Below are positions 31,415 to 43,708 of a stretch of DNA of 64,000 nt, in pieces. Position numbers and translations under genes: made by a program. Every line of letters begins with the position of its first letter. Position 1 is the first letter of the stretch. The stretch lies in the NCBI RefSeq assembly GCF_058153355.1, contig NZ_CM177019.1. One strand, 5' to 3'. The notes under the pieces were generated by a model, which saw nothing but the letters and a program-made list of their open reading frames with translations, was not told the DNA's origin and did no database searches.

Positions 31415-32389
31415 ATGTATCTTAATACTCAAGTTCAATATAATAAGTTAAATAAAGATGAAAAAAAGATCCTGTTGTTACAAAAGCTAGCCCATTTAAC
31501 TGATTTTACTTTTGACAGAATAGAGACATTTTCAGCATTTGGACAATCTACTGAAACAGGTGTTTTTAAATATAAAGATGGCAATGAATTTGTTGTTGTC
31601 CCCGGGGATACAGTAATATTAGGGTGGGATGCCAGTCTCAATAATATGGATGGTCCGACAAAACAAGAATTTGAAGAGATGTTGGAACCAGAAGGTTTAG
31701 ATTTGAATAATTATCTCACCGACTCTTGCACACCTGTCAGGAAGGTTACAATTTCCCCGATGCTGGTTGAAAGAAACGTTCACGCCGAACCAAGTTGGAA
31801 GGAAGTATCTCTTACGGACCCCCGCATCACAGAGAACAGCATGCTGCAAAAATTTCTGTCTGATTATATGGAAAAAATTAATCCTGGAGTTCACGAATTA
31901 AACGCAAGATTGAAATTACAATATATAGATGGGGATTTATTTGCACAAATATATGAATCAATTAGCTATGATGAGTTACTTCAAAATATCCAAAGCAATA
32001 GTTTTGATCTTCCGAGCGAAGATGAATGGGAATATTTATGTGGCGGTGGTTCCAGGACACTCTGGCGCTGGGGGAATAATTTCGACTATCAAATGAAAAT
32101 CCCATTTATTACTTCAGAAGAACCAACAACCTGGGATATAGAATGGCCTAATCAGTTTGGGTTGCAGATTGCATTTGATCCCTATCTTCAGGAAATTATT
32201 AATGATAAAGATATTCTTCTGAAAGGTGGCGATGGTGGGTGCAATCTCTGCGGAGGTGCTAATGTTGTATTAGGATTCTTGCCTGTGGCAACTTATTACA
32301 AAGGATATAATAAACATACGGACGAATTAGAATATATGGATGACATTGGAGACAATTATACTTCTTATCGCAGAATAATTCGTTTATGA
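31415..32389 (+). CDS. hypothetical protein, FGE-sulfatase (SUMF1/EgtB/PvdO-like) domain suspected
   Basis: 324-aa ORF, very AT-rich by eye; motifs FVVVPGDTVILGWDAS, SEDEWEYLCGGGSRTLWRWGNNF and NQFGLQI resemble the MVxIPGGxFxMG, AEWEYAxRGG...PWG and NxxGLxDM motifs of formylglycine-generating-enzyme-like domains; no signal peptide. Confidence 0.5.
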   Translation: MYLNTQVQYNKLNKDEKKILLLQKLAHLTDFTFDRIETFSAFGQSTETGVFKYKDGNEFVVVPGDTVILGWDASLNNMDGPTKQEFEEMLEPEGLDLNNYLTDSCTPVRKVTISPMLVERNVHAEPSWKEVSLTDPRITENSMLQKFLSDYMEKINPGVHELNARLKLQYIDGDLFAQIYESISYDELLQNIQSNSFDLPSEDEWEYLCGGGSRTLWRWGNNFDYQMKIPFITSEEPTTWDIEWPNQFGLQIAFDPYLQEIINDKDILLKGGDGGCNLCGGANVVLGFLPVATYYKGYNKHTDELEYMDDIGDNYTSYRRIIRL

Positions 32390-32440
32390 GTAAAAATTAT
32401 ATTTCAGGACAAGAAGTTATGCTCGGGTCAAGCTAATGAA

Positions 32441-33952
32441 TTGCTTAACGCAAGGAATAAAAACGTATTGATGAACACTGGGAATTTCGAGTCGATACAA
32501 ATCATGATCGACGCGCAAGAGTGGCGTAGCCTGCCGCTGCATCTGCGTCTGTATCACGCTTTTCGCCAATTGGTGATTTCCGGCGCATTGTCTGATGGCG
32601 CAAAACTGCCTTCCGCTCGCGCACTGGCCCAGCAACTTGGTCTTTCCAGAGATACCATCGAAAATGCCTATTCCCAGCTCCACCGCGACGGTTTTATGGC
32701 TCGCAGGCAGGGGGCCGGGAGTTTCGCCAGCCGCCAGGGGATACCGCATATTCAGGGCCAGCATGCGCAACCACCCTCGCCCGGACAAGTACCGGCTTTA
32801 AGCGCTCGCTGGCAGCCAATTGCCGATCGCGCAGTCTCTTTCGATGCCCGCCAGATGCAGACCTTTACGCTTGGCCTGCCGGAAACGCGAAACTTCCCGC
32901 TAAACATTTGGCAGAACTTTTCCCGCCAGATCCAACGTGAGCAGGCACATACGCTGATGTTAAATAGCGATCCGCAGGGCGAGCCACAGCTGCGCCAGCA
33001 AATTGCGCATTACCTTAATTTTGAACGCGGCGCGAAGGTAGATGCCGGGCAGATTGTGATTGTCAGCGGCGCACGGCAGGCGTTCTGGCTGTGCGGGCAA
33101 CTGCTGGCAGAGGCCGGACAGTCGGTGGCGATGGAAAATCCGGGCTATCCCGGCGCGCGTCAGGCGTTTTCTGCCGCACAGCTTAATCTTCTTCCCGTTG
33201 AAGTGGATGACGCCGGGATCCGGGTGGATAAACTGCCGCCCGCGCCGCTGGTTTACGTCACGCCCTCGCACCAGTTTCCTTCCGGTCATTTGCTCACGCT
33301 GGCGCGGCGTCATGCCCTGATTGCCTGGGCGCAGGCGCACAATGCGTGGATTATCGAAGACGACTACGACAGCGAATTTCACTACACCAGCGCGCCCGTC
33401 GCCTGTCTGCAAGGGTTAGACTGCGAGCAACGCACCCTGTATGTCGGCACTTTCAGCAAAACGCTCTATCCCGGCCTGCGCATCGGTTATCTGGTGGTGC
33501 CGACGTCGCTGGCTGCGCACTTTGCCGCCGCGCGTAATTTGCTTGATGGCGCAACGCCTGCGTTATCCCAACTAACGCTGGCGCGATTTATCGAGTCCGG
33601 TCATTTTGCCGCCCATATTCGCAACATGCGTAGTATGTATGCGGTGCGACAGGGGTGCCTGGCAGAGGCTATTCATCAGCACTTAAGTGAATGGGTCACG
33701 CCAGTGGTGACATCCGGTGGATTGCAAATGCCCTGCTGGCTGCATGGAGGTATTGATGAGCAACAGACGCTGAATGCCGCGCGCCGCGCCGGGTTAAACA
33801 TCGCCGGAATGCGCCAGTTCTGGCTGACGCACCCCGCGCACGCGGGCTGGCTGCTGGGATTCGCCGCCTTTACCCCCTACGAGATTGAACAGGGCGTCAA
33901 GCGTCTGCGGGCTGCATTATGCACTGAAAACGTGCGCCCAGCCGGGTCATAA
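32441..33952 (+). CDS. MocR/GabR-type regulator (GntR HTH fused to a PLP aminotransferase-like domain)
   Basis: 503-aa ORF; N-terminal GntR-like HTH (LPSARALAQQLGLSRDTIENAYSQLHRDGFMARRQGAGSF) followed by a roughly 350-aa aminotransferase class I/II-like region; true start may be an internal Met; GC-rich by eye. Confidence 0.8.
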   Translation: MLNARNKNVLMNTGNFESIQIMIDAQEWRSLPLHLRLYHAFRQLVISGALSDGAKLPSARALAQQLGLSRDTIENAYSQLHRDGFMARRQGAGSFASRQGIPHIQGQHAQPPSPGQVPALSARWQPIADRAVSFDARQMQTFTLGLPETRNFPLNIWQNFSRQIQREQAHTLMLNSDPQGEPQLRQQIAHYLNFERGAKVDAGQIVIVSGARQAFWLCGQLLAEAGQSVAMENPGYPGARQAFSAAQLNLLPVEVDDAGIRVDKLPPAPLVYVTPSHQFPSGHLLTLARRHALIAWAQAHNAWIIEDDYDSEFHYTSAPVACLQGLDCEQRTLYVGTFSKTLYPGLRIGYLVVPTSLAAHFAAARNLLDGATPALSQLTLARFIESGHFAAHIRNMRSMYAVRQGCLAEAIHQHLSEWVTPVVTSGGLQMPCWLHGGIDEQQTLNAARRAGLNIAGMRQFWLTHPAHAGWLLGFAAFTPYEIEQGVKRLRAALCTENVRPAGS

Positions 33953-33956
33953 TCTC

Positions 33957-35003
33957 CTACGGGATGGTGTTGCAGGCAGCGGCAACCTGTTCCAGCGTCT
34001 GGCCTGCGCCAATAAATTCCACCTTATCGCCCGCTGTCGGCGTGACGGAGCTGGCATCGACCATAAAGCTGTCCATACAAACCCGCCCCAATACCGGTAA
34101 CCGCACGCCGCGCCAGCATACGCCCGCCGGAGGACGCATATTTCGCGGAACGCCATCCGCGTAACCCGCGGATATCGTAGCGATACGCAGCGGACGCGTG
34201 GCGGTAATCGTGCTGCCGTAGCCAACTGGCGTTCCCGCCGGGACATCCTGCACGCGCAGAATAGTTAGCGTCAGCGTAAAAGCCGGTTTTAGCGGCCTGG
34301 AAAACCACGGCTGGGCGACGCCAAACAGCGCAATCCCCGGACGGCAGAGATCTTCCCGCCAACCTGGTTGCAAAAACATTCCGCAGGAGTTCGCCAGCGA
34401 AAATCGGCTGCTGGGGAAAACCGTTTTTGCCTGCTGGAATAGCGCGTGTTGCGCCATATTTAACGCATGATCCGGCCTGTCGGCGTTCGCCAGATGGCTG
34501 ATGATATAGTCCGGCGCAGGCCAGTTACGCTCACGAAAAATCGCCGCCAGACGCATCAGTTGTTGCGGCATCATGCCCAGCCGCGACATACCAGAATCGA
34601 GCTGAATCATCACCGCGCTCCGTTGCTGGCGCGTTTCCAGTAACGTAAGCCACGCCATCACCTGGTCTACGGAATTGAGCAATGGCGTGATCTGCTGCGC
34701 GTAACAATACGCCATCGCCTCCGGCATAACCCCATTAAGCACTACCACCATCGCATCAGTGGGCAGGATTTTACGCAACGCCACGCCTTCAGAAAGCTGT
34801 GCGACAAAAAAGATCCGGCAGTTCGCCGCATACAGGGCGGGCGCAATCGCCTCCGCCCCCAGACCATAGGCATTGGCTTTCAACACCGCGCCACATTGCG
34901 CAGGGGCAGCATGGCGGGCCAGCATACGATAATTGTCGACGATGGCGGCGCGATTAACGCACATAACACCGCACGCCGCCTGGATTTCAGTAGAAGTCAT
35001 CAT
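33957..35003 (-). CDS. alanine racemase-family PLP enzyme (amino-acid racemase, specificity unknown)
   Basis: 348-aa ORF; VLKANAYGLG (PLP-lysine motif, cf. VVKANAYGHG in Alr) and SAGYADGVPR (cf. MGYGDGYPR catalytic Tyr region). Confidence 0.8.
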   Translation of the reverse strand: MMTSTEIQAACGVMCVNRAAIVDNYRMLARHAAPAQCGAVLKANAYGLGAEAIAPALYAANCRIFFVAQLSEGVALRKILPTDAMVVVLNGVMPEAMAYCYAQQITPLLNSVDQVMAWLTLLETRQQRSAVMIQLDSGMSRLGMMPQQLMRLAAIFRERNWPAPDYIISHLANADRPDHALNMAQHALFQQAKTVFPSSRFSLANSCGMFLQPGWREDLCRPGIALFGVAQPWFSRPLKPAFTLTLTILRVQDVPAGTPVGYGSTITATRPLRIATISAGYADGVPRNMRPPAGVCWRGVRLPVLGRVCMDSFMVDASSVTPTAGDKVEFIGAGQTLEQVAAACNTIP

Positions 35004-36238
35004 TAATAAGGCAACGGGTAGCGGTTGGTTAGTTGTATTACTTTTTGCTCAATATCGGCGCAAATGTCTGCAATATCTGATGAATTAATGGCGAAAATAA
35101 TTTCACTTATCCAGTCGGCAATCAGCGCAAAGTCATCCGCCTTCATCCCACGCGTGGTGCAGGCCGCGCTGCCAATACGAACGCCGGAGGTAATCAACGG
35201 CGGCTGCGGATCGCCCGGCAGGGTGTTTTTATTGACCGTGATCCCCGCCAGTTCGAGAAAGTACTCCACCTGTGCGCCGGTTAACCCCTGCGGGCGCAGG
35301 TCGATAATCCCCAGATGGCAGTCGGTGCCGTCCGTTAACAGCGTCAGGCCGCGCAGCGCCAGTTGCTGGCACATCGCCTGCGCATTGTCGATAACCTGCC
35401 CGGCATAACGTTTAAATTCCGGTTGTAATGCCTCGCCAAGCGCCACCGCTTTCGCTGCGATAACGTGCATCAACGGCCCGCCCTGCAAACCGGGAAAAAT
35501 GGCACTGTCGATTTTTTTCGCAAGCCTGGCGTCGTTGGTGAGGATCATGCCGCCGCGCGGCCCGCGCAATGTTTTATGCGTGGTGGTGGTGACCACATCA
35601 GCATACGCCAGCGGCGAAGGGAAACAGCCGCCCGCCACCAGCCCGGCAAAGTGCGCCATATCCACCAGCAAAATGGCGTCAACGGCATCGGCAATGCGGC
35701 GAAAACGGGCAAAATCATAGTGACGTGGATAAGCCGATCCTCCGGCAATAATCAACCGCGGGCGCTCACGCAGCGCGATCATCTCGACCTGATCCATATC
35801 AATCAAACCACTGTGCGCATCGACGCCATAGTGAAAAGCGTTAAACCATTTGCCGGATTGATTGACCGGCGAACCGTGCGTGAGATGCCCGCCGCATTGC
35901 AGGCTCATGCCAAGAATTTTGTCGCCGGGTTTCAGCAACGCCAGATGGACCGCCTGATTCGCCTGGCTGCCGGAGTGAGGCTGCACATTGACGTAACGCG
36001 CGCCAAAGAGCTGCTGCGCGCGGGTTATCGCCAGCATCTCAACCTCATCAATAAACTTACAGCCGCCGTAATAGCGATGCTGGTAATAACCTTCGGCGTA
36101 TTTATTGGTTAACACCGACCCCTGCGCCGCGAGAACGGCGGGGCTTACGAAATTCTCCGAGGCAATCAGTTCCAGCGACTGCTGCTGGCGCTGTTGCTCC
36201 TGGTTAATCAATGCAAAAAGTGGATCGTTATTTATCAT
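35003..36238 (-). CDS. serine hydroxymethyltransferase-family PLP enzyme (GlyA paralog)
   Basis: ORF 35003..36304; from [30 protein letters not shown] collinear with E. coli GlyA including [16 protein letters not shown] (PLP lysine); start at the internal Met preceded by gggggaag is more plausible, coordinate +/- a few bases. Confidence 0.85.
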
Positions 36239-36513
36239 GCGCTTCCCCCGCAAATTCATCATGCGATGATTTTCGCAGGGAAAACCTCGTCCGCACCCTG
36301 CCACTTTTTTGGGCAGGTGCAGACCACCTGTATGTCGTATTACTTAAAAGAAGAGAACATCGCTGACAATACCGGTATTAACTCCGAAATGAAGAGGGAA
36401 GAAGGCTCCGGCCATCTCCATGTGCGATTCTGGCTAGTAAAACATCATATTCCAGCTGCTCTTATCCGCCTACGTTATTGCATATACGGATAAGGCAGCC
36501 TCAATACGTACTT

Positions 36514-38067
36514 TTACTTGATATCTTTCACGCGCATACCGTTGATCTGTTCATCCGTGATGGTGTTACCCGCTTTAAAGTAATCAACCACCGCGTGATA
36601 AACGTAATAACCGCCCGTCGTATTGCGCGCTTTACCCTCGGTAAACGCGGTAAAACCATCTCCACCATCAGCAAGGAAACTCTGAGTGGCAATGTGGTAA
36701 ACCGTCGCATCTTCAATCGGTTTGCCATTCAAAGTCAGTGAGATAACCCGCTGACCAACCGGCTTGCTGCTGTCGTACTTCATTTCCAGGCCTTTCGATA
36801 CCTGTAAAACGCCATTACTTAAACTTGCGCCGTGTTCCATCAAACTGCGTAATTGTTTACCCGTGAGTTCCATCGTCACCAGTTCGTTGGGGAACGGGAA
36901 GGTACTGATGACGCCACCCATCGTAATTGCACCCGCCGGGATCTCATTGCGGATACCGCCAGAGTTGGTTAACGCCAACTGGGTATTTTTACCCGCCGCT
37001 GCCAGTAAAGCATCTGCCGCCAGGTTCCCGAGAGAAGCCGATTCACCATAGGCACGTTTTAGTTCAACCGGCGATTGCGCCACCGTTTGCTGCACGACTT
37101 CATCCAGCTTTTTATTCCAACTATCAATCACCTGTTTTGTTTGCGGATCGGGCTTCCACTCGTCGGCGTAAAGGGTTTTAAGCTCGAAGTTTTTCACCGT
37201 AAAAGTGTGCGGCTTCTCTTTGTAGTCCAGTACCAGTTTACCCACATCAATCCCACCGCTGTCAGTGGAGAGGATGAGCGTATTGCCGACTTTAATCGGT
37301 TCCGGCGTACCCACATGTGCATGCCCGGTGATCAAAATATCCAGCCCTTTCACCTGACTTGCCGTCTGAATATCTTTATCCAGTGCGCGGCGCACATCTG
37401 TGCCCCCCATACTGGACTGGCGGGCCGGAACACCTTCGTGAATCAGCGCAACGGTCAAATCAACCTTGCCTTTGAGTTCATCGATATAACGTTGTAGCCA
37501 TTTAATTTCATCACGCGCCTCAATACCCACTCGCGTTGCCGCAGATACCGTATCATTAAAGGCAAATACACCGTGCAAACCAATCACGCCAATTTTCACG
37601 CCGTCTTTTTCAATGATGGTATAGGGCTTATCCCAGAATGATTTACTGCTGTTCTGATAAAAAACATTACCCTGCACAATCGGGAATTTTGCCTGACTCA
37701 ACTGTAATAACGTATTGTCCCAGCCGTGATCAAATTCATGATTACCTATAGTGGCCGCATCGAACGGCATGGTATTCATAATATCGATAATCGCCTTGCC
37801 TTTAGTCAGGCTGCTGATATACGGCCCGGTAAAATAGTCACCCGCATCAAAAAACCAGGTCGCTTTGTTTTTAGCTTTTTCTTGTTTAACAAGCGTAGTG
37901 ATATTTGCCCAGCCGCCAATATCTCGTTTACCGTCAGCAATCCACGGCACTTTATAAGGCTCTACATGTGCATGGAGGTCGTTGGTATAAATGATGGTGA
38001 CATCTTTGGCGCAAGCCCAAAACGGCAGTGTTAATGCGATACCCGCAGCAAGCATTTTAATTTTCAT
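36514..38067 (-). CDS. secreted 5'-nucleotidase / metallophosphoesterase-family protein (UshA-like), paralog 1
   Basis: ORF 36514..38073; signal peptide [20 protein letters not shown]; calcineurin-like motifs NDLHAH, GDYFTG, GNHEFD, ITGHAHV and a C-terminal 5'-nucleotidase-type region; start trimmed to the ATG preceded by a purine-rich SD. Confidence 0.85.
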
Positions 38068-38125
38068 AAACAATCCCTTCCAGTGAGATAAAGGATTGCT
38101 ACATTACGTTCTGAAAGGCTTTTTT

Positions 38126-38143
38126 ATGTGAGAATACTCACAT
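38126..38143. promoter_or_regulatory. 7-4-7 inverted repeat (candidate operator) in the divergent promoter region between the paralog-1 nucleotidase and the zinc-ribbon protein gene
   Basis: atgtgag-aata-ctcacat lies centrally in the 132-bp divergent intergenic region 38068..38199. Confidence 0.4.
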
Positions 38144-38199
38144 CCAGAGGCGATAACTGTAGGACAAAATCAACGACCTTATGAAATCGTTGGTGATAT

Positions 38200-39327
38200 A
38201 TGTCAAATCTGTTTGCGATTAATGTCTGTAAAACGTTCGGTTGTCGAAATTTGGGATTGGCCTCATCGGAAGATTACAGTTGGCCAGACTATAAACTGGG
38301 TTTTCCGGCACTGCACTGCCAGGCATGCGGAAGTTACCCCCCTTTGTTTGATGAACAACAATTTCGTGACTGGTTGTCAGTTCACATGACTGCGTGTGCC
38401 ATAGAAACAGGGCATTTTTGTCCATCATGCTATTGTAAAGAAAAGATTTTTTATGGCCACAACCCGCAGGGAACACAACGCGTTCAATGCCGTTCATGCA
38501 AAAAAGTCTGGACTCCGAAACAGCAGCCAGCAAGAGAAATTACGTATCCCCAGTCCATTGAAACCGTTCAACTGTTCATGCCCTTTCAAGGAGCCAGCGC
38601 AGTACAAAAGCTCTATGTTTTAGTCAGTCTTGACGCCACTCGTGGCAACATCCTTCATCTCTCCACGAATTATACGCAACATCAGACAGGAGACAGTCTG
38701 CGGTACAGTTACAGAGGCAATACAGAACCAACTGAGCACCATAGCGATATTGTGCAGAGGGTAGATATGCGTGAAGCGCAATTCTTGCGCCGGAGCCAGT
38801 TCGATGAAATTCAGTATGGCAGTGCTGTGCTCAAGCGCAACGGCAAGGGAGCCATACTACGCCCGGTTATCACGGCACACGGGCATTTCAGAATACTGAA
38901 AATCCGCTTTCCACATGTCAAAACGCATATCATTTCACACGAATGTTTTCTGAGAGGCGCAATTATTACAGCCTGGGCAGATCAGTTCCGCCAACAACAA
39001 GGCGAACTTTGGTTCGTAGAAGAAGAAATCAGCGACCGTAACGCTGATATTCCCTGGCATTTTCAGGGAACGACATACCATGGTTGGTGGCAAAATCAGT
39101 GGCAACGCTGGGGGCAGGGGAATAACAGCAAGATGGTCTGCCTGCTCACAGGAGTCTCCTTAGAAAGGGGCGCAAATGTTTCTCTGGCAACCAGTCGTTG
39201 CTTTATCACATGGCTGACAGACCAACACGACTTTACCCAAAGCGCGTTATTATCCGCAGGTCGCGTAACGAAAATGCTGACCTCACTGGCGTTAAAATAC
39301 AATGAATCGCTCAATCCATCTTGTTAG
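38200..39327 (+). CDS. hypothetical Cys-rich protein with N-terminal zinc-ribbon(s), possibly transposase-derived DNA-binding protein
   Basis: 375-aa ORF; Cys pairs CKTFGC...CQAC and CPSCYCKEK-x14-RVQCRSCKKVWT resemble the IS1 InsA / IS1595-type zinc ribbon (CPSC...QRYLCSHCRKTWQ); remainder not recognisable; no signal peptide. Confidence 0.45.
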   Translation: MSNLFAINVCKTFGCRNLGLASSEDYSWPDYKLGFPALHCQACGSYPPLFDEQQFRDWLSVHMTACAIETGHFCPSCYCKEKIFYGHNPQGTQRVQCRSCKKVWTPKQQPAREITYPQSIETVQLFMPFQGASAVQKLYVLVSLDATRGNILHLSTNYTQHQTGDSLRYSYRGNTEPTEHHSDIVQRVDMREAQFLRRSQFDEIQYGSAVLKRNGKGAILRPVITAHGHFRILKIRFPHVKTHIISHECFLRGAIITAWADQFRQQQGELWFVEEEISDRNADIPWHFQGTTYHGWWQNQWQRWGQGNNSKMVCLLTGVSLERGANVSLATSRCFITWLTDQHDFTQSALLSAGRVTKMLTSLALKYNESLNPSC

Positions 39328-39556
39328 TCAATACACTCGACAAACGACCATAAATTAATGGGATCACTATTTCTCATTTAATTAAATATATGAATGTATG
39401 ACTGAAAAATATAATCACAGTCAATGTTTAATTAATAACATTATTTGTTACTAAGATCACATAATACTTTCCTGACCTATGCTTACATAAAAATAAGACA
39501 CGGAGTTCCTTTTATTTAAATAATTCAACCAATGTAACAACCCCTATCAAGGAGGG

Positions 39557-41110
39557 ATGATGAGAACTGTATTTACGACTTTATCAGTCATATTCAGCGT
39601 GATGTTTTCTCACAGTATACTAGCTCAGGACGTTACTATTTATTATACGAATGATATTCACGCACATGTCAATCCGGCAAAAATTCCCGCTGTTGATAAG
39701 AACAGACTTGTAGGTGGTATGGCTAATATTGCAGGCATCGTTAATGAAGCGAAGAAAAAAAACAAAGATGTCTTTTTCTTTGATGCAGGCGACTATTTTA
39801 CCGGTCCGTATATCAGTACCCTGACCAAAGGTGAAGCTATTATTGATATCATGAACACCATGCCCTTTGATGCGGTATCCGTTGGTAATCACGAGTTCGA
39901 TCACGGCGTGCCCAATATGGTATCTCAGTTATCAAAAGCAAAATTCCCCATTCTGCTGGGAAATATTTACTACACCGATACAAATAAACCAGTTTGGGAT
40001 CATCCGTGGACCATTATCGAAAAAGATGGTTTAAAGATTGGTGTGATTGGATTGCATGGTGCATTCGCTTTCTATGATACAGTCGCGGCAAAAGCACGTG
40101 AAGGCGTAGAAGCCAGAGACGAAATTAAATATTTAAATAAAGCACTTGCAGAATTAAAAGGTAAAGTCGACATTACCGTTTTGCTAATTCACGAAGGTGT
40201 TCCGGCGCGTCAATCAAGCTTTGGTAGTAAAGATGTGGAGCGGCTACTACAGGCAGATATTGAGACAGCTAAAAAAGTGAATGGTGTTGATGTCTTAATT
40301 ACCGGTCACGCACATGTCGGAACACCGCAACCAATAAAAGTTAATAACACATTAATTGTATCTACCGATGCATACGGCACCGACATCGGAAAACTTGTGC
40401 TTGATTACAATCCGAAAACGAAGAAAATTGATAGTTATAATGGTGAGTTAATCACCATCTTCGCAGATCAATTTAAACCTGACACCATCGTTCAAAATAC
40501 TATCGATAAATGGAGTGCAAAGCTTAACAAAATAACACAGGAAGTTGTCGGCCATTCTCCCGTAGTTTTAACACGTGAGTATGGCAGTTCTTCTTCTACC
40601 GGTAACCTTATTCTTGATGCAATGATGGAAAAAACACCAGATGCCATTGCCGGATTTCAAAATAGCGGTGGGATGCGAGCTGATTTTCCTAAAGGTGATA
40701 TCACGCTGGGAGATGTTATTAGCACATTCCCCTTTAATAATGACCTCATCGAGATGGATTTGACGGGCCGCGATCTCAAATCGTTGATGACGCATGCAAC
40801 CAATCTAACTAACGGTGTGTTACAGGTTTCAAAAAGCGTTGCGGTTGTCTATGACAGCAAAAAACCACTGAACCAACGGTTAATCTCTTTCACCATTAAC
40901 GGCAAACCCGTGGAAGATAATCAAACATATCGTATTGTCACGCACTCCTTTTGTGCCAGTGGTGGTGACGGTTTTGAAGCATTTTTGAATGGAAAAAATG
41001 TGAAGACGATACCGGGAACAACCTCGGCGGAATCTATCATCGATTATTTCAAAAATCATAAACCTGTCACCCCAGACTTAACTAAACGAGTAATGGACGT
41101 CGCCAAATAA
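39557..41110 (+). CDS. secreted 5'-nucleotidase / metallophosphoesterase-family protein, paralog 2
   Basis: 517-aa ORF, AT-rich; signal peptide MMRTVFTTLSVIFSVMFSHSILA; same motif set (NDIHAH, GDYFTG, GNHEFD, ITGHAHV); collinear with paralogs 1 and 3. Confidence 0.85.
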   Translation: MMRTVFTTLSVIFSVMFSHSILAQDVTIYYTNDIHAHVNPAKIPAVDKNRLVGGMANIAGIVNEAKKKNKDVFFFDAGDYFTGPYISTLTKGEAIIDIMNTMPFDAVSVGNHEFDHGVPNMVSQLSKAKFPILLGNIYYTDTNKPVWDHPWTIIEKDGLKIGVIGLHGAFAFYDTVAAKAREGVEARDEIKYLNKALAELKGKVDITVLLIHEGVPARQSSFGSKDVERLLQADIETAKKVNGVDVLITGHAHVGTPQPIKVNNTLIVSTDAYGTDIGKLVLDYNPKTKKIDSYNGELITIFADQFKPDTIVQNTIDKWSAKLNKITQEVVGHSPVVLTREYGSSSSTGNLILDAMMEKTPDAIAGFQNSGGMRADFPKGDITLGDVISTFPFNNDLIEMDLTGRDLKSLMTHATNLTNGVLQVSKSVAVVYDSKKPLNQRLISFTINGKPVEDNQTYRIVTHSFCASGGDGFEAFLNGKNVKTIPGTTSAESIIDYFKNHKPVTPDLTKRVMDVAK

Positions 41111-41144: not shown

Positions 41145-42770
41145 ATGCGAATGAAAACAGTGCAGCGTACTTTACTTGCCGCAACATTGCTGACTATTTT
41201 TTCGGTCTCAGCCATGGCGCAGGATGTCACGATTATTTATACCAATGATCTTCACGCTCATGTGGATTCTTATAAAGTGCCGTATATCGCAGACGGAAAA
41301 CGCGACATTGGCGGCTTTGCCAATATATCTACTTTAGTAAAACAAGAGAAAGCGAAAAATAAAGCCACCTTTTATTTTGATGCTGGAGACTATTTCACCG
41401 GCCCTTATATCAGCAGTCTGACAAAGGGCGAAGCAATAATTGACATTATGAATACCATGCCTTTTGACGCAGTATCAATCGGTAATCATGAGTTTGACCA
41501 TGGCTGGGATAATGCCCTGCGACAATTAAGCAAAGCGAATTTTCCTGTTTTATTGGGCAATGTTTATCATAAAGAGAGTGAGAAACCCTTCTGGAACAAG
41601 CCCTACACCATCCTGGAAAAAGATGGCATCAAGATTGGTATTATTGGGCTACACGGCGTATTTGCATTTAATGATACGGTCTCGGAGCTCTCTCTCCAGG
41701 GACTCGATAATGACAATAATAACCGCTTTGATAAATCTTCCGAGACCCTTAAGAATCAGGGGATTGAAGCACGTGATGAAGTGAAGTATTTGCAGCATTA
41801 TATCGACGAGTTACGTGATAAGGTTGACCTCACTGTGGCGCTGGTTCATGAAGGCGTTCCGGCGCGTCAGTCCAGCATTGGCATTACAGATGTTAGACGC
41901 GCTCTTGATAAAGATATTCAAACCGCTAGCAAGGTGAAAGGATTGGATATTCTGATTACCGGGCATGCCCACGTCGGAACGCCAGAACCAATCAAAGTCG
42001 GCAACACCTTAATCCTTTCAACTGATAGTGGCGGTATCGATATTGGTAAATTAGTCCTTGATGTCAACCCTACAGCTCGTACCCATAAAATGAAGAGCTT
42101 TGAGCTGAAAACAGTTTATGCCGATGAATGGATACCCGATCCAACGACACAAAAAGTTATCAATGGCTGGAATAAAAAACTGGCGGATATTGTACGCCAA
42201 CCAGTGGGTGAATCATCGATTGCATTAACTCGCGCCTATGGTGAGTCATCGCAACTAGGCAACCTGTTTACCGATGCAATGCTTGTCGCTGCTCCGACTG
42301 CACAGATTGCATTGATAAACTCCGGCAGCTTACGTGCGGATATAAATGCAGGCACGATTACCTTTGGCGACATTACCAGTACATTCCCCTTCAAGAATGA
42401 ACTTACTGAAATGGATCTCAGCGGTAAGGATCTGCGTAACCTACTGGAACACGGGGCATCGCTTACCAATGGCATCCTGCAAATGTCAAAAGGCGCAGAA
42501 ATGCGCTATACCCCGCAGAAACCAGTAGGTCAGCGCATAGTATCTTTTAAAATTAATGGTGAAGAGATCGTTGATACGAATATTTACCATGTTGCAACAA
42601 CGACTTTCCTTGCACTGGGGGGCGATGGTTTTCTGGCATTCAAAGAAGGGAAAAATGTTCAGGTCCGCGCCGGAAAAAACATGTCCGATGTCGTGATCGA
42701 TTATTTGAAGAAAGGCCACAAGATTACGCCTGCACAGGTAAATGAAATGCGGGTGGACGTTAGCAAATAA
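41145..42770 (+). CDS. secreted 5'-nucleotidase / metallophosphoesterase-family protein, paralog 3
   Basis: 541-aa ORF; signal peptide MRMKTVQRTLLAATLLTIFSVSAMA; highly similar to paralog 1 but with an extra Asp/Asn-rich insertion of about 25 aa (SELSLQGLDNDNNNRFDKSSETLKNQG). Confidence 0.85.
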   Translation: MRMKTVQRTLLAATLLTIFSVSAMAQDVTIIYTNDLHAHVDSYKVPYIADGKRDIGGFANISTLVKQEKAKNKATFYFDAGDYFTGPYISSLTKGEAIIDIMNTMPFDAVSIGNHEFDHGWDNALRQLSKANFPVLLGNVYHKESEKPFWNKPYTILEKDGIKIGIIGLHGVFAFNDTVSELSLQGLDNDNNNRFDKSSETLKNQGIEARDEVKYLQHYIDELRDKVDLTVALVHEGVPARQSSIGITDVRRALDKDIQTASKVKGLDILITGHAHVGTPEPIKVGNTLILSTDSGGIDIGKLVLDVNPTARTHKMKSFELKTVYADEWIPDPTTQKVINGWNKKLADIVRQPVGESSIALTRAYGESSQLGNLFTDAMLVAAPTAQIALINSGSLRADINAGTITFGDITSTFPFKNELTEMDLSGKDLRNLLEHGASLTNGILQMSKGAEMRYTPQKPVGQRIVSFKINGEEIVDTNIYHVATTTFLALGGDGFLAFKEGKNVQVRAGKNMSDVVIDYLKKGHKITPAQVNEMRVDVSK

Positions 42771-42847: not shown

Positions 42848-43708
42848 ATGTGTATAAAAAAGCACGGGATAGCTTTATCGATTCTATTAATACCTTGCAT
42901 TGGAAACGCTCAGGAAATTAAAAGTGAGGAAGGCTGGTTACATCAAAGCTTGAATGTCATTGGTCGCACAGACTCTCGCTTTGGCCCAAGGCTGACTAAC
43001 GACCTCTACCCTGAATATACTGTAGCAGGAAGAAAAGACTGGTTTGATTTTTATGGTTATGTTGATCTACCAAAATTCTTTGGCGTCGGCAGTCACTATG
43101 ATGTTGGGATCTGGGATGAGGGCTCACCACTATTTACGGAAATAGAACCTCGGTTTTCCATTGACAAATTGACCGGATTAAATCTTGCGTTCGGCCCTTT
43201 TAAAGAATGGTTCATTGCAAACAACTATGTCTATGATATGGGTGACAACCAGTCATCCCGGCAAAGTACATGGTATATGGGGCTTGGTACAGATATCGAC
43301 ACGGGTCTACCAATTAAGCTTTCTGCCAATATATACGCCAAGTATCAGTGGCAAAACTATGGTGCCGCTAATGAAAATGAATGGGACGGATATCGATTCA
43401 AAATAAAATATAGCATTCCTCTTACCCATTTATTCGGAGGGCGATTGGTATACAATAGTTTTACTAACTTTGATTTTGGATCCGATCTTGCGGACAAATC
43501 ACACAATAATAAACGAACCAGTAATGCTATTGCTTCAAGCCATATCCTTTCCCTGCTATATGAACACTGGAAATTTGCATTTACACTACGTTATTTTCAC
43601 AACGGTGGACAATGGAATGCTGGGGAGAAAGTTAACTTCGGAGATGGTCCATTTGAATTAAAAAACACAGGATGGGGAACCTATACTACTATTGGTTATC
43701 AATTTTAA
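42848..43708 (+). CDS. Tsx-family outer-membrane nucleoside-specific channel protein (paralog of tsx)
   Basis: 286-aa ORF, AT-rich; signal peptide then blocks matching E. coli Tsx from memory ([97 protein letters not shown]) and a C-terminal aromatic residue. Confidence 0.85.

Follow-up and report, generated by a model that had tools for sequence, protein, structure and literature searches.

A domesticated relative of IS1-like DDE transposases, proposed as a local regulator beside enterobacterial 5'-nucleotidase genes

A 375-aa protein encoded within the window (the whole 64,000-nucleotide stretch of contig NZ_CM177019.1 analysed here) is, on well-supported evidence, a descendant of an IS1-like DDE transposase. 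Our preferred reading, held with moderate confidence, is that it has been domesticated, is catalytically inactive and acts as a local regulator. The regulatory part of this reading is inferred from the striking recurrence of nucleoside and nucleotide genes beside members of the family, and it is weakened by deletion of the helix-turn-helix (HTH) in the clade to which the window protein belongs.

The open reading frame starts with ATG, agrees with the RefSeq CDS and encodes the Cys-rich protein of 375 aa described in the first-pass annotation. In E. coli IAI39 it corresponds to WP_000067197.1, a "hypothetical protein", and in E. coli strain 2013C-4282 the matching CDS is labelled "cytoplasmic protein". 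Elsewhere in the family, which is found in E. coli, Salmonella, Klebsiella, Citrobacter, Enterobacter, Vibrio and Photobacterium, labels range from "cytoplasmic protein" to "IS1 family transposase" and even "lactate dehydrogenase". No account of the family was found in the searchable literature, and a PADLOC profile search with the window protein gave no anti-phage defence match. The gene and the parts of its product are as follows.

38200..39327, + strand: gene of the window protein, a 375-aa domesticated homolog of IS1-like transposases (ORF call and RefSeq CDS)
38227..38328, + strand: zinc ribbon 1, residues 10-43, with C10, C15, C40 and C43 (Cys conservation and AF2 model)
38419..38514, + strand: zinc ribbon 2 of the InsA/IS1 type, residues 74-105, with C74, C77, C97 and C100 (profile matches and hhalign)
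38545..39324, + strand: RNase H-like (DDE-transposase-type) core, residues 116-375

Zinc ribbons, helix-turn-helix and RNase H-like core

The four Cys pairs (C10/C15, C40/C43, C74/C77 and C97/C100) had been proposed to form two zinc ribbons, and their conservation bears this out. Across 18 orthologs (61-89 % identity), none of the eight paired cysteines varies, so the pairs are not a chance pattern. In a 58-member family alignment reaching down to 19 % identity, C97 and C100 are still invariant and C10, C15, C40 and C43 are conserved at 90 % or more; C66 and C79 show no conservation. Zinc ribbon 1, modelled with a pLDDT of ~97 by AlphaFold 2 (AF2) from the 58-member alignment, is a family-specific module that IS1 InsA lacks. 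Zinc ribbon 2 is basic and conserved in the 18-ortholog alignment.

Taken singly, the window protein matched transposase profiles only marginally: Pfam Zn_ribbon_InsA at E 0.043, NCBIfam IS1_IS1595_Zn (NF050000) at E 0.026, NCBIfam transpos_IS1 (NF033558) at E 4e-4 with 20.4 bits against a cutoff of 100, and, as the single match in a PHROG search, a transposase zinc ribbon at E 0.0027. At the family level, hhalign against IS1 InsAB' (a query with 99.1 % identity to IS1B) gave 97.2 % and E 4.5e-11 over an alignment spanning zinc ribbon and HTH. Zn_ribbon_InsA was matched by 8 of the 58 members at E <= 1e-3 (best 1.4e-7) and transpos_IS1 by 8 of 10 distant members (E 1e-10 to 1e-4). Judged from these profiles, the InsA-type resemblance of ribbon 2 is weak for the window protein alone and solid for the family. 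The companion suggestion of an IS1595-type ribbon did not hold, as Zn_ribbon_IS1595 failed to match the window protein and matched 5/58 members, all at E 3.6e-3 or worse, while DDE_Tnp_IS1595 matched neither the window protein nor any member.

Residues 5-88 of IS1 InsA are homologous to the CxxC...CxxC zinc ribbon and, in most family members, to the HTH that follows it. In the window protein this InsA-type HTH is gone between residues 108 and 109, leaving a 43-residue gap relative to P0123 and empty HTH columns in the hhalign of the family against InsAB'. The clade without it consists of proteins of 371-391 aa, and every other family member has kept it. DNA recognition by the window protein would therefore need the zinc ribbons or the core.

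AF2 produced an unusable model (pLDDT 39.6) when the 18 close orthologs served as alignment and became confident only once the 58-member alignment was supplied. The core is complete and shows the five-stranded mixed sheet with flanking helices that defines the RNase H-like, DDE transposase-integrase fold; residues 269-317 form an additional insertion of four strands. The roughly 270 residues first reported as unrecognisable are thus a DDE-type core; the accompanying remark that no clear DDE triad is present stands, with two positions non-acidic. The catalytic positions fall at about residues 121-123 (E-T-V), V223 and E248, as mapped by alignment and secondary structure rather than by 3D superposition, with the register at D1 ambiguous by two residues (E121/V123). 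Of the three, E248 alone is retained. Its position holds E or D in 57/58 members, whereas D1 is non-acidic in most of the 58 and D2 is Val in 38 of them, with D or E there confined to IS-like members. Many aromatic, His and Arg residues are conserved in this core missing two carboxylates.

Foldseek against the PDB returned nothing at E <= 1e-3, the weak matches being RNase H-like and mostly PIWI and EndoV; PDB sequence searches, whether started from the window protein or from a profile, returned only cysteine-biased C2H2 zinc-finger matches and left the core unmatched. The Pfam domain DDE_Tnp_IS1 matched neither the window protein nor any of the 58 members, and hhalign against a single IS1 sequence did not reliably align the DDE core past the beta2-beta3 hairpin. 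The core alone, by contrast, aligned with transposases P0235, P0245, P0249, P0253 and P0288 at 99.8 % and E 8.6e-29 over 280 columns. Its origin is therefore established by homology to these IS-like relatives and not through a single IS1 sequence, which extends the earlier label "transposase-derived", prompted by the ribbons, to the entire protein.

These five relatives (570-620 aa) share the family architecture of two ribbons, HTH and core and, unlike the window protein, carry acidic residues at all three catalytic positions. P0253 belongs to a bona fide IS, a 2.24-kb element that is identical in three contigs with differing flanks and is bounded by 34-35-bp inverted repeats, with a 10-bp target duplication in L076. 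It occurs in varied contexts unrelated to nucleoside genes; the window gene has no such range of contexts, terminal inverted repeats or target duplication. Compared with IS1 itself, the window protein likewise places an RNase H-type core C-terminal of the DNA-binding part, and the D2-to-Glu spacing is 25 residues in both. It differs in its additional N-terminal zinc ribbon, in its much larger core (~260 aa including the beta insertion, unmatched by the Pfam and NCBIfam IS1 DDE models), in lacking two catalytic carboxylates and the HTH, and in being encoded by a single-copy gene without inverted repeats that is inherited at a fixed chromosomal locus.

Scavenging genes and the divergent region

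The features around the gene are given below; regulatory sites are listed without strand.

36514..38067, - strand: 5'-nucleotidase/metallophosphatase (5'-NT) paralog 1, the conserved divergent partner (RefSeq annotation)
38068..38199: 132-bp divergent regulatory region between 5'-NT paralog 1 and the window gene (conservation alignments)
38104..38117: Box A, TTACGTTCTGAAAG, candidate operator (near-invariant in a 23-locus alignment)
38127..38142: perfect CRP-consensus core TGTGA-GAATAC-TCACA (sole perfect match in the 64-kb window)
38165..38194: Box B, CAAAATCAACGACC-TTATG-AAATCGTTGGT, candidate auto-operator or leader hairpin (23-locus alignment)
39446..39461: CRP-like site TGTTA-CTAAGA-TCACA, one mismatch, upstream of paralog 2
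39557-41110, + strand: 5'-NT paralog 2 (ORF call and RefSeq annotation)
41145-42770, + strand: 5'-NT paralog 3 (ORF call and RefSeq annotation)
42848-43708, + strand: Tsx nucleoside channel (ORF call and RefSeq annotation)

The gene is transcribed divergently from paralog 1 and lies directly upstream of paralogs 2 and 3, an arrangement noted at first pass on which ORFs and RefSeq annotation agree. Paralog 1, the presumed target of the window protein, is a periplasmic member of the UshA/CpdB/NadN superfamily whose NCBIfam matches fall far under the equivalog cutoffs. The 5'-NT/5'-NT/Tsx set is found at the opposite flank of the regulator homolog in Enterobacter, in Citrobacter and at a second locus in E. 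coli. A 5'-NT gene was immediately adjacent in 52 of 57 genome loci, a count obtained with scan patterns taken from subfamilies already linked to 5'-NT genes. Nine contexts were distinguished in which the family adjoins nucleoside or nucleotide scavenging genes, usually divergently. They include a divergent 5'-NT with or without additional 5'-NT and Tsx genes; an apparent 5'-NT-X operon in Vibrionaceae and Psychromonas, the family gene being downstream of the 5'-NT in Vibrionaceae; a porin, acid phosphatase B and PDEase II; NupC-PNP; PNP; TAL-Add-DeoC-DeoA-DeoB-DeoD; and DeoB-DeoD-NupG-like. In many gut and marine bacteria, throughout Enterobacterales and Vibrionales, the family is firmly tied to genes that scavenge extracellular nucleotides and nucleosides.

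The region between paralog 1 and the window gene is highly conserved in a dozen enterobacterial genera (86 % mean column identity over four genera), and an alignment of 23 loci resolved three near-invariant blocks within it; no consensus sigma-70 promoter was found there. The perfect 7-4-7 palindrome previously reported between the divergent genes was located at 38126-38143 (ATGTGAG-AATA-CTCACAT) and contains the CRP core, whose centre is separated by 67.5 bp from the start codon of the 5'-NT gene and by 65.5 bp from that of the window gene. TCACA is invariant in 23/23 loci, the left half keeps 3-5 of its 5 positions and the spacer varies. Since CRP-like sites also adjoin family genes in 7 of 8 contexts, the palindrome is more readily accounted for by a canonical CRP site than by an operator of the window protein's own.

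The other two blocks are candidate operators. Box A falls in the stretch that separates the CRP site from the presumed -10 element of 5'-NT and is unique in the window at two or fewer mismatches. Within Box B, which was flagged as a stem-loop, the 11-mer AAATCGTTGGT is invariant in 23/23 loci, has its sole exact copy in the window here and ends 6 nt 5' of the window gene ATG. Neither box turned up when the DNA preceding paralog 2, paralog 3 and Tsx was searched, and control of the whole cluster is therefore unsupported. A resemblance of Box A to the inverted repeat of the P0253 element (11/13 positions with a gap) was discarded, its score being reached by 475 of 2000 shuffles for the left repeat and 46 of 2000 for the right.

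A proposed role at CRP-dependent promoters

We propose that the window protein regulates transcription of the divergent 5'-nucleotidase and of its own gene. InsA is a DNA-binding repressor that acts by binding IS ends, which provides a precedent; by analogy, the window protein would most likely bind Box A and/or Box B, on either side of the central cAMP-CRP site. It would probably repress these CRP-dependent promoters, or act on them as an anti-activator in the manner of CytR, and the former active site, remodelled with conserved His, Glu, Arg, Trp and Asn residues, may now provide a surface for oligomerisation or a pocket sensing a nucleoside or nucleotide. In Enterobacteria and Vibrio, the LacI-family anti-activator CytR governs nucleoside catabolism and transport, acting on promoters with cAMP-CRP sites at deo, udp, cdd, tsx and nup-type genes. 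The likeness would be functional only and lies in the CRP sites adjoining family genes, since Pfam searches found no LacI or PBP domain in the family, which has no sequence or fold relationship to CytR, and no CytR-type operator was recognised. A comparable evolutionary route was taken by FHY3/FAR1, eukaryotic transcription factors derived from Mutator-like DDE transposases, and by TldR, bacterial repressors derived from TnpB; in both, the DNA-binding apparatus was kept, catalysis was lost and a host regulator resulted, in other superfamilies and hosts.

The most serious alternative, which we consider unlikely without being negligible, is that the protein was domesticated into something other than a DNA-binding factor, for instance a cytoplasmic sensor of nucleosides, nucleotides or oligonucleotides, a post-transcriptional regulator that binds RNA, or a protein partner; in each case it would modulate nucleoside scavenging by way of the remodelled RNase H-like pocket. 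Deletion of the HTH in this clade points in that direction, as do the many conserved aromatic, His and Arg residues in a core without two of its carboxylates and the leader hairpin that Box B could form just 5' of the ribosome-binding site. The apparent operon with 5'-NT in Vibrionaceae can also be cited for it, and that gene order is compatible with a regulator as well as with a non-regulatory partner. Against it, most family members retain the full InsA-like zinc ribbon and HTH module, ribbon 2 is basic and conserved, and local transcription factors typically show such a divergent layout, with strong conservation of the DNA between the two genes. A DNA-binding local regulator is the reading that we retain.

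Domestication and its implications

Of 5426 E. coli genomes, 1841 carry the gene, each in a single copy, and the metF/metL locus is used alike in Escherichia, Citrobacter, Klebsiella, Kosakonia, Phytobacter and Salmonella. The reading frame is intact and of conserved length in more than 12 genera, its dN/dS is 0.13-0.24 and more than 150 residues are invariant among the 18 orthologs. Among 72,556 plasmid records, 18 carry the gene, all typed non-mobilizable; several of these are chromosome- or chromid-sized, and the one inspected resembles a mis-assigned chromosomal fragment. IS1 itself occurs in at least 5000 plasmid records. The absence of flanking terminal inverted repeats noted at first pass was also confirmed: the only bracketing pair (16 nt, 88 %, 38121-38136 and 39478-39493) was rejected as a relic terminal repeat because of its overlap with the CRP site and the lack of any counterpart to its right arm where orthologs abut metL. 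Immobility, an orthologous position, purifying selection and loss of catalysis, the marks of an exapted transposase, are thus all observed, and the initial guess of domestication is supported by single copy, synteny across genera, purifying selection and two lost catalytic positions.

These data leave little room for two readings that keep the gene within the biology of mobile elements. That it is a decaying IS remnant which mediated the nucleotidase duplications and is now functionless, as had been suggested from its transposase ancestry and the three 5'-NT paralogs around it, is very improbable, and we regard the idea as refuted by the selection and synteny data together with the lack of IS ends; moreover, the gene predates the paralog expansion, because the ancestral unit consists of a single 5'-NT and the gene. 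An active transposase of an unrecognised IS element is just as improbable. Several sources name its relatives "IS1 family transposase" and distant relatives are real IS transposases, but the gene occupies one place per genome, is flanked by conserved host regulatory DNA and metL rather than by inverted repeats, scores far below the NCBIfam IS1 cutoff, is rare on plasmids and encodes two non-acidic catalytic positions. Least probable of all is the earlier option of an unrelated zinc-binding enzyme with a chance likeness to transposase ribbons, for which the marginal matches of the single protein could be cited; family-level profile comparisons and the fold assignment decide against it, and searches of Pfam, NCBIfam, PADLOC and PDB sequences matched the window protein to no enzyme family.

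For eukaryotes, it is textbook knowledge that DDE transposases have been domesticated into transcription factors. The searchable literature yielded no description of a bacterial transcription factor with such an ancestry, and the terms "DDE" and "IS1" are absent from a 2022 review on how prokaryotes recruit mobile elements. Here, an entire family appears to have taken the transposase-to-regulator route around one physiological theme, nucleotide and nucleoside scavenging (5'-nucleotidases, Tsx, NupC/NupG, deo genes and phosphatases). A bolder version, which we hold tentatively and consider somewhat less than an even bet, is that the family forms a new class of transcription factors made from a DDE transposase, working with cAMP-CRP and using the dead RNase H-like pocket to sense a nucleoside or nucleotide in the control of scavenging across Enterobacterales and Vibrionales.

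If the regulatory role is true, the family would add a new transcription-factor architecture for bacteria and would identify the missing regulator of an uncharacterised subfamily of periplasmic 5'-nucleotidases in pathogens. Annotations that count family genes as IS elements would be corrected, and, with living IS relatives at hand, the family would offer a clean system in which to study how a transposase becomes a regulator.

Transposase ancestry of the window protein

Four N-terminal Cys pairs claimed in the first-pass annotation (C10/C15, C40/C43, C74/C77 and C97/C100) are invariant across 18 orthologs (61-89 % identity) and essentially invariant in a 58-member family alignment with identities down to 19 %. 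Based on this conservation, they are assigned as real metal-binding modules and a chance pattern is ruled out. The resemblance of the second ribbon to InsA was marginal when the window protein was searched alone (Pfam Zn_ribbon_InsA, E 0.043; NCBIfam IS1_IS1595_Zn, E 0.026; PHROG transposase, E 0.0027; NCBIfam transpos_IS1, E 4e-4, 20.4 bits, cutoff 100), but was reconfirmed at family level. A profile search recovered 139 relatives among 1.84 billion representative proteins, some of them full-length (400-620 aa), and hhalign matched the 58-member alignment to IS1 InsAB' (query 99.1 % identical to annotated IS1B transposases) with a probability of 97.2 % and E 4.5e-11 over the second zinc ribbon and the following helix-turn-helix (HTH; InsA residues 5-88). 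Zn_ribbon_InsA was detected in 8/58 members at E <= 1e-3 and transpos_IS1 in 8 of 10 distant members (E 1e-10 to 1e-4), each below cutoff. No IS1595 profile matched the window protein, which places it outside that family.

The HTH segment itself is missing from the window protein and its clade of 371-391-aa proteins (gapped alignment row), with members in Escherichia, Citrobacter, Klebsiella, Enterobacter and Salmonella. BLASTP against family member P0123 (39 % identical) left a clean 43-residue gap immediately after the ribbon, and the window protein is ~60 residues shorter at the HTH than the Vibrio-type member P0162. Separately, the called start of P0129, the Photobacterium nomapromontoriensis member, is probably too far downstream, as the supposed intergenic DNA (L014 6645-7000), read by eye, seems to encode N-terminal zinc-ribbon motifs.

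The remaining ~270 residues, first described as unrecognisable, are indeed uncovered by any Pfam or NCBIfam model when searched with the window protein and family members; however, hhalign and structure prediction point to a transposase-type RNase H-like core. AlphaFold2 gave no usable model with a shallow ortholog alignment (pLDDT 39.6), whereas the 58-member alignment produced a confident single-body model (pLDDT 94.3, pTM 0.93) with a predicted beta-beta-beta-alpha-beta-alpha-beta-alpha order after the ribbons, a four-strand insertion (269-317) and C-terminal helices. Foldseek found no PDB match at E <= 1e-3, and the weak matches were RNase H-like folds without exception. When cores only (from residue 116 onward) were compared, 49 main-family members matched five IS-like transposases at 99.8 % (hhalign, E 8.6e-29, 280 columns), so transposase ancestry covers the whole protein.

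The most distant family members (P0235, P0245, P0248/P0288, P0249 and P0253) retain three acidic residues, one on beta1 and the others immediately following beta4 and beta5. P0253 (613 aa), an IS1-like transposase with two zinc ribbons, HTH and a large DDE core, is encoded within a ~2.24-kb element that also holds a 68-aa Cys-rich ORF:

L076 503-2744, L077 24-2267 and L078: P0253 element on three metagenome contigs

The copies are 100 % identical with different flanks, their termini form 34-35-bp inverted repeats (91 % complementary), and a 10-bp direct repeat, CGACGTGGTC, brackets the L076 copy as a target duplication; the element is therefore a bona fide IS, apparently undescribed so far. 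In L076 it is inserted into a palindrome that follows a dctP fragment, and the neighbourhoods of P0253 and P0288 are unrelated to nucleoside genes.

Mapping the catalytic positions from alignment and secondary structure suggests that the after-beta4 position is Val in the main family (V223; Val in 38/58, preceded by Pro in 51/58). The beta1 position, whose register is ambiguous by two residues (E121 or V123 in the window protein, neither column conserved as acidic), would be non-acidic in most members, and the after-beta5 Glu is retained as E248 (E 49/58, D 8/58), 25 residues from position 223 and thus at the spacing counted in IS1. By fold the window protein is assigned to the RNase H-like DDE class, and it is related to an IS1-like IS group; membership of IS1 itself is excluded by the score, the missing HTH, the catalytic triad, the element ends and the copy number.

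Immobility, selection and gene neighbourhoods

The window derives from an Escherichia coli chromosome. The order of the island agrees with the first reading, in which the window gene was divergent from paralog 1 and upstream of paralogs 2 and 3:

36514-38067, minus strand: 5'-nucleotidase (5'-NT) paralog 1
38200-39327, + strand: window gene, ATG start, 375 aa
39557-41110: 5'-NT paralog 2
41145-42770: 5'-NT paralog 3
42848-43708: Tsx nucleoside channel, next to metL

The window ORF coincides with RefSeq coding sequences named "hypothetical protein" (WP_000067197.1, IAI39) and "cytoplasmic protein". All three 5'-NT paralogs fall in the UshA/CpdB/NadN superfamily and, because their matches lie far below every equivalog cutoff (UshA model, 153-165 bits; cutoff 600), are classed by sequence as an uncharacterised subfamily of periplasmic metallophosphatases. 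Tsx is intact and exceeds the NCBIfam cutoff (491.8 vs 311 bits); in IAI39, where metF and metL flank the island, the Tsx copy (L001 13850-14695) is annotated as a pseudogene with its C-terminus missing. An additional cluster separates metF from the island in the window (31415-36304; a 324-aa hypothetical protein, a MocR-type PLP-dependent regulator, an alanine-racemase-like gene and a second SHMT-like gene), an arrangement found whole in just 3/5426 complete E. coli genomes. Its SHMT copy is an open 433-aa ORF here and an annotated pseudogene (internal stop) in 2013C-4282.

A 1.5-kb query containing the gene plus the beginning of paralog 1 matched 1841 of the 5426 complete E. coli genomes (>=80 % of the query covered in 658) at a maximum of one place per genome, making the window gene single-copy. 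As previously noted, no terminal inverted repeats bracket it; the sole candidate, a 16-nt 88 % pair, overlaps the CRP site and is absent from loci in which metL abuts or overlaps the 3' end of the gene. By tblastn, 18 of 72,556 plasmid records carry the gene, all typed non-mobilizable and several of chromosome or chromid size, compared with at least 5000 records matched by IS1 itself. One 148-kb record, Salmonella Senftenberg 'plasmid 3' (L083, NZ_LN868945.1), looks like a mis-assigned chromosomal fragment because it carries the chromosomal katG-metF-5'NT-homolog-...-metL-metB locus. Between orthologs, dN/dS was 0.13-0.24 (Nei-Gojobori) for pairs with unsaturated dS (0.20-0.83), more divergent pairs being saturated. 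The window gene is a host gene, and IS status is rejected.

Nucleotide and nucleoside scavenging was the theme of every context examined.

Table. Genomic contexts of family genes.
E. coli variants, Citrobacter, Photobacterium nomapromontoriensis: divergent 5'-NT
Enterobacter, another chromosomal site: divergent 5'-NT, 5'-NT and Tsx
Enterovibrio: 5'-NT with family gene directly downstream
Salmonella P0141: divergent porin, class B acid phosphatase, class II phosphodiesterase
P0136: divergent NupC and nucleoside phosphorylase
P0152: divergent transaldolase, adenosine deaminase, DeoC, DeoA, DeoB, DeoD; TatD and Bmp-type ABC transporter nearby
P0305: divergent DeoB, DeoD, nucleoside:H+ symporter
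Photobacterium P0274: adjoining nucleoside phosphorylase

In a one-genome-per-species scan (blastp on neighbouring ORFs), 52 of 57 loci had a 5'-NT immediately adjacent, a proportion biased by search patterns drawn from subfamilies already linked to 5'-NT; the remaining five were contig ends or partial matches. Most pairs in Enterobacterales are divergent (gaps 115-160 bp), and in Vibrionaceae and Psychromonas the family gene usually follows the 5'-NT on the same strand, with 37-103 bp in between. Two diverged paralogous copies of the locus occur in some genomes, and both have 5'-NT genes of their own. The common form is the single divergent pair, which argues against the earlier idea that the gene mediated the paralog expansion. 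Promoters of Vibrionaceae operons made up of a 5'-NT and a family gene (L056-L074) share a PurR box-like palindrome, GCAAACGTTTGC, in 4-5/17 species, and also AAATGTGA, which resembles a CRP half-site.

Foldseek against AFDB50 placed the family in Salmonella, Klebsiella, Enterobacter, Atlantibacter, Serratia, Proteus, Vibrio, Photobacterium and Enterovibrio under the names "cytoplasmic protein", "IS1 family transposase", "InsA N-terminal domain protein" and "lactate dehydrogenase". Several Photobacterium (P0274-P0284) and Vibrio genomes use the last label, others 'IS1 family transposase'; the two names appear wrong for domesticated members.

The divergent intergenic region

The 132-bp intergenic region shows unusually high conservation (86 % mean column identity) across four genera, in which the proteins are 62-73 % identical. 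When 23 loci are aligned, representing about a dozen genera, three conserved blocks stand out: a palindrome and two boxes. A further CRP-like site lies downstream.

38104-38117: Box A, TTACGTTCTGAAAG (alignment of 23 loci)
38165-38194: Box B, CAAAATCAnCGACC-N5-AAATCGTTGGT (alignment of 23 loci)
39446-39461: CRP-like site with 1 mismatch, TGTTACTAAGATCACA, within the 229 bp of AT-rich spacer DNA preceding 5'-NT paralog 2

The palindrome reported at first pass is real and lies in the divergent region, but is not conserved as a 7-4-7 operator. It reads TGTGA-GAATAC-TCACA, a perfect cAMP-CRP consensus core that the 64-kb window contains only once. TCACA does not vary between genera and the left pentamer keeps 3-5/5 positions; because the pentamers are conserved and the spacer is free to vary, the pattern is that expected of a predicted CRP site. 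Measured from the centre of the site, the 5'-NT ATG is 67.5 bp away and the window gene ATG 65.5 bp away, a spacing that would suit class II-like activation at either promoter. A consensus scan of the region found no sigma-70 promoter, as expected for activator-dependent promoters. Two of the three CRP-like matches at <=1 mismatch in the window fall inside the island, and such sites occur in regulatory DNA beside family genes in 7/8 different contexts.

The Box B 11-mer AAATCGTTGGT is invariant in 23/23 enterobacterial loci and ends 6 nt before the ATG. In the left arm, CAnCGA, n is A (13), G (7), C (2) or T (1); CAnCGA and TCGTTG could pair as a leader RNA hairpin, or Box B could be an operator. 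Neither box recurs within the 64-kb window.

Proposed role of the domesticated protein

The window protein is a transposase homolog that is immobile, catalytically compromised and under selection, and it is firmly tied to genes for scavenging nucleosides and nucleotides, whose promoters have predicted CRP sites. The earlier proposal of a transposase-derived regulator stands as to IS1-like origin and domestication, which are well supported (hhalign, dN/dS, single copy); that the protein acts as a local regulator we infer. Box A would separate the CRP site from the presumed 5'-NT promoter -10, and Box B would cover the presumed -10 to +20 of the window gene's own promoter. IS1 InsA is a repressor that binds IS ends. 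Given this precedent and the repressor-type box positions, a repressor or anti-activator with autoregulation, acting against cAMP-CRP in a CytR-like manner, is favoured by analogy. CytR is the closest functional analogue, although unrelated in sequence and fold. The remodelled pocket (conserved T122, N157, Y169, R198, P222, H229, H247/E248, R252/G253/A254, W296/W297/W301 and Y367/N368) might sense a pathway effector. The main weakness of the regulator model is the loss of the HTH in this clade, and substantial weight is consequently kept on a non-DNA-binding role as sensor or partner.

A literature search for the family found no paper. Evolutionary parallels to a domesticated regulator include eukaryotic transcription factors derived from transposases and the bacterial TldR repressors derived from TnpB. 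In the window protein a DDE transposase has been domesticated, probably into a bacterial metabolic regulator.
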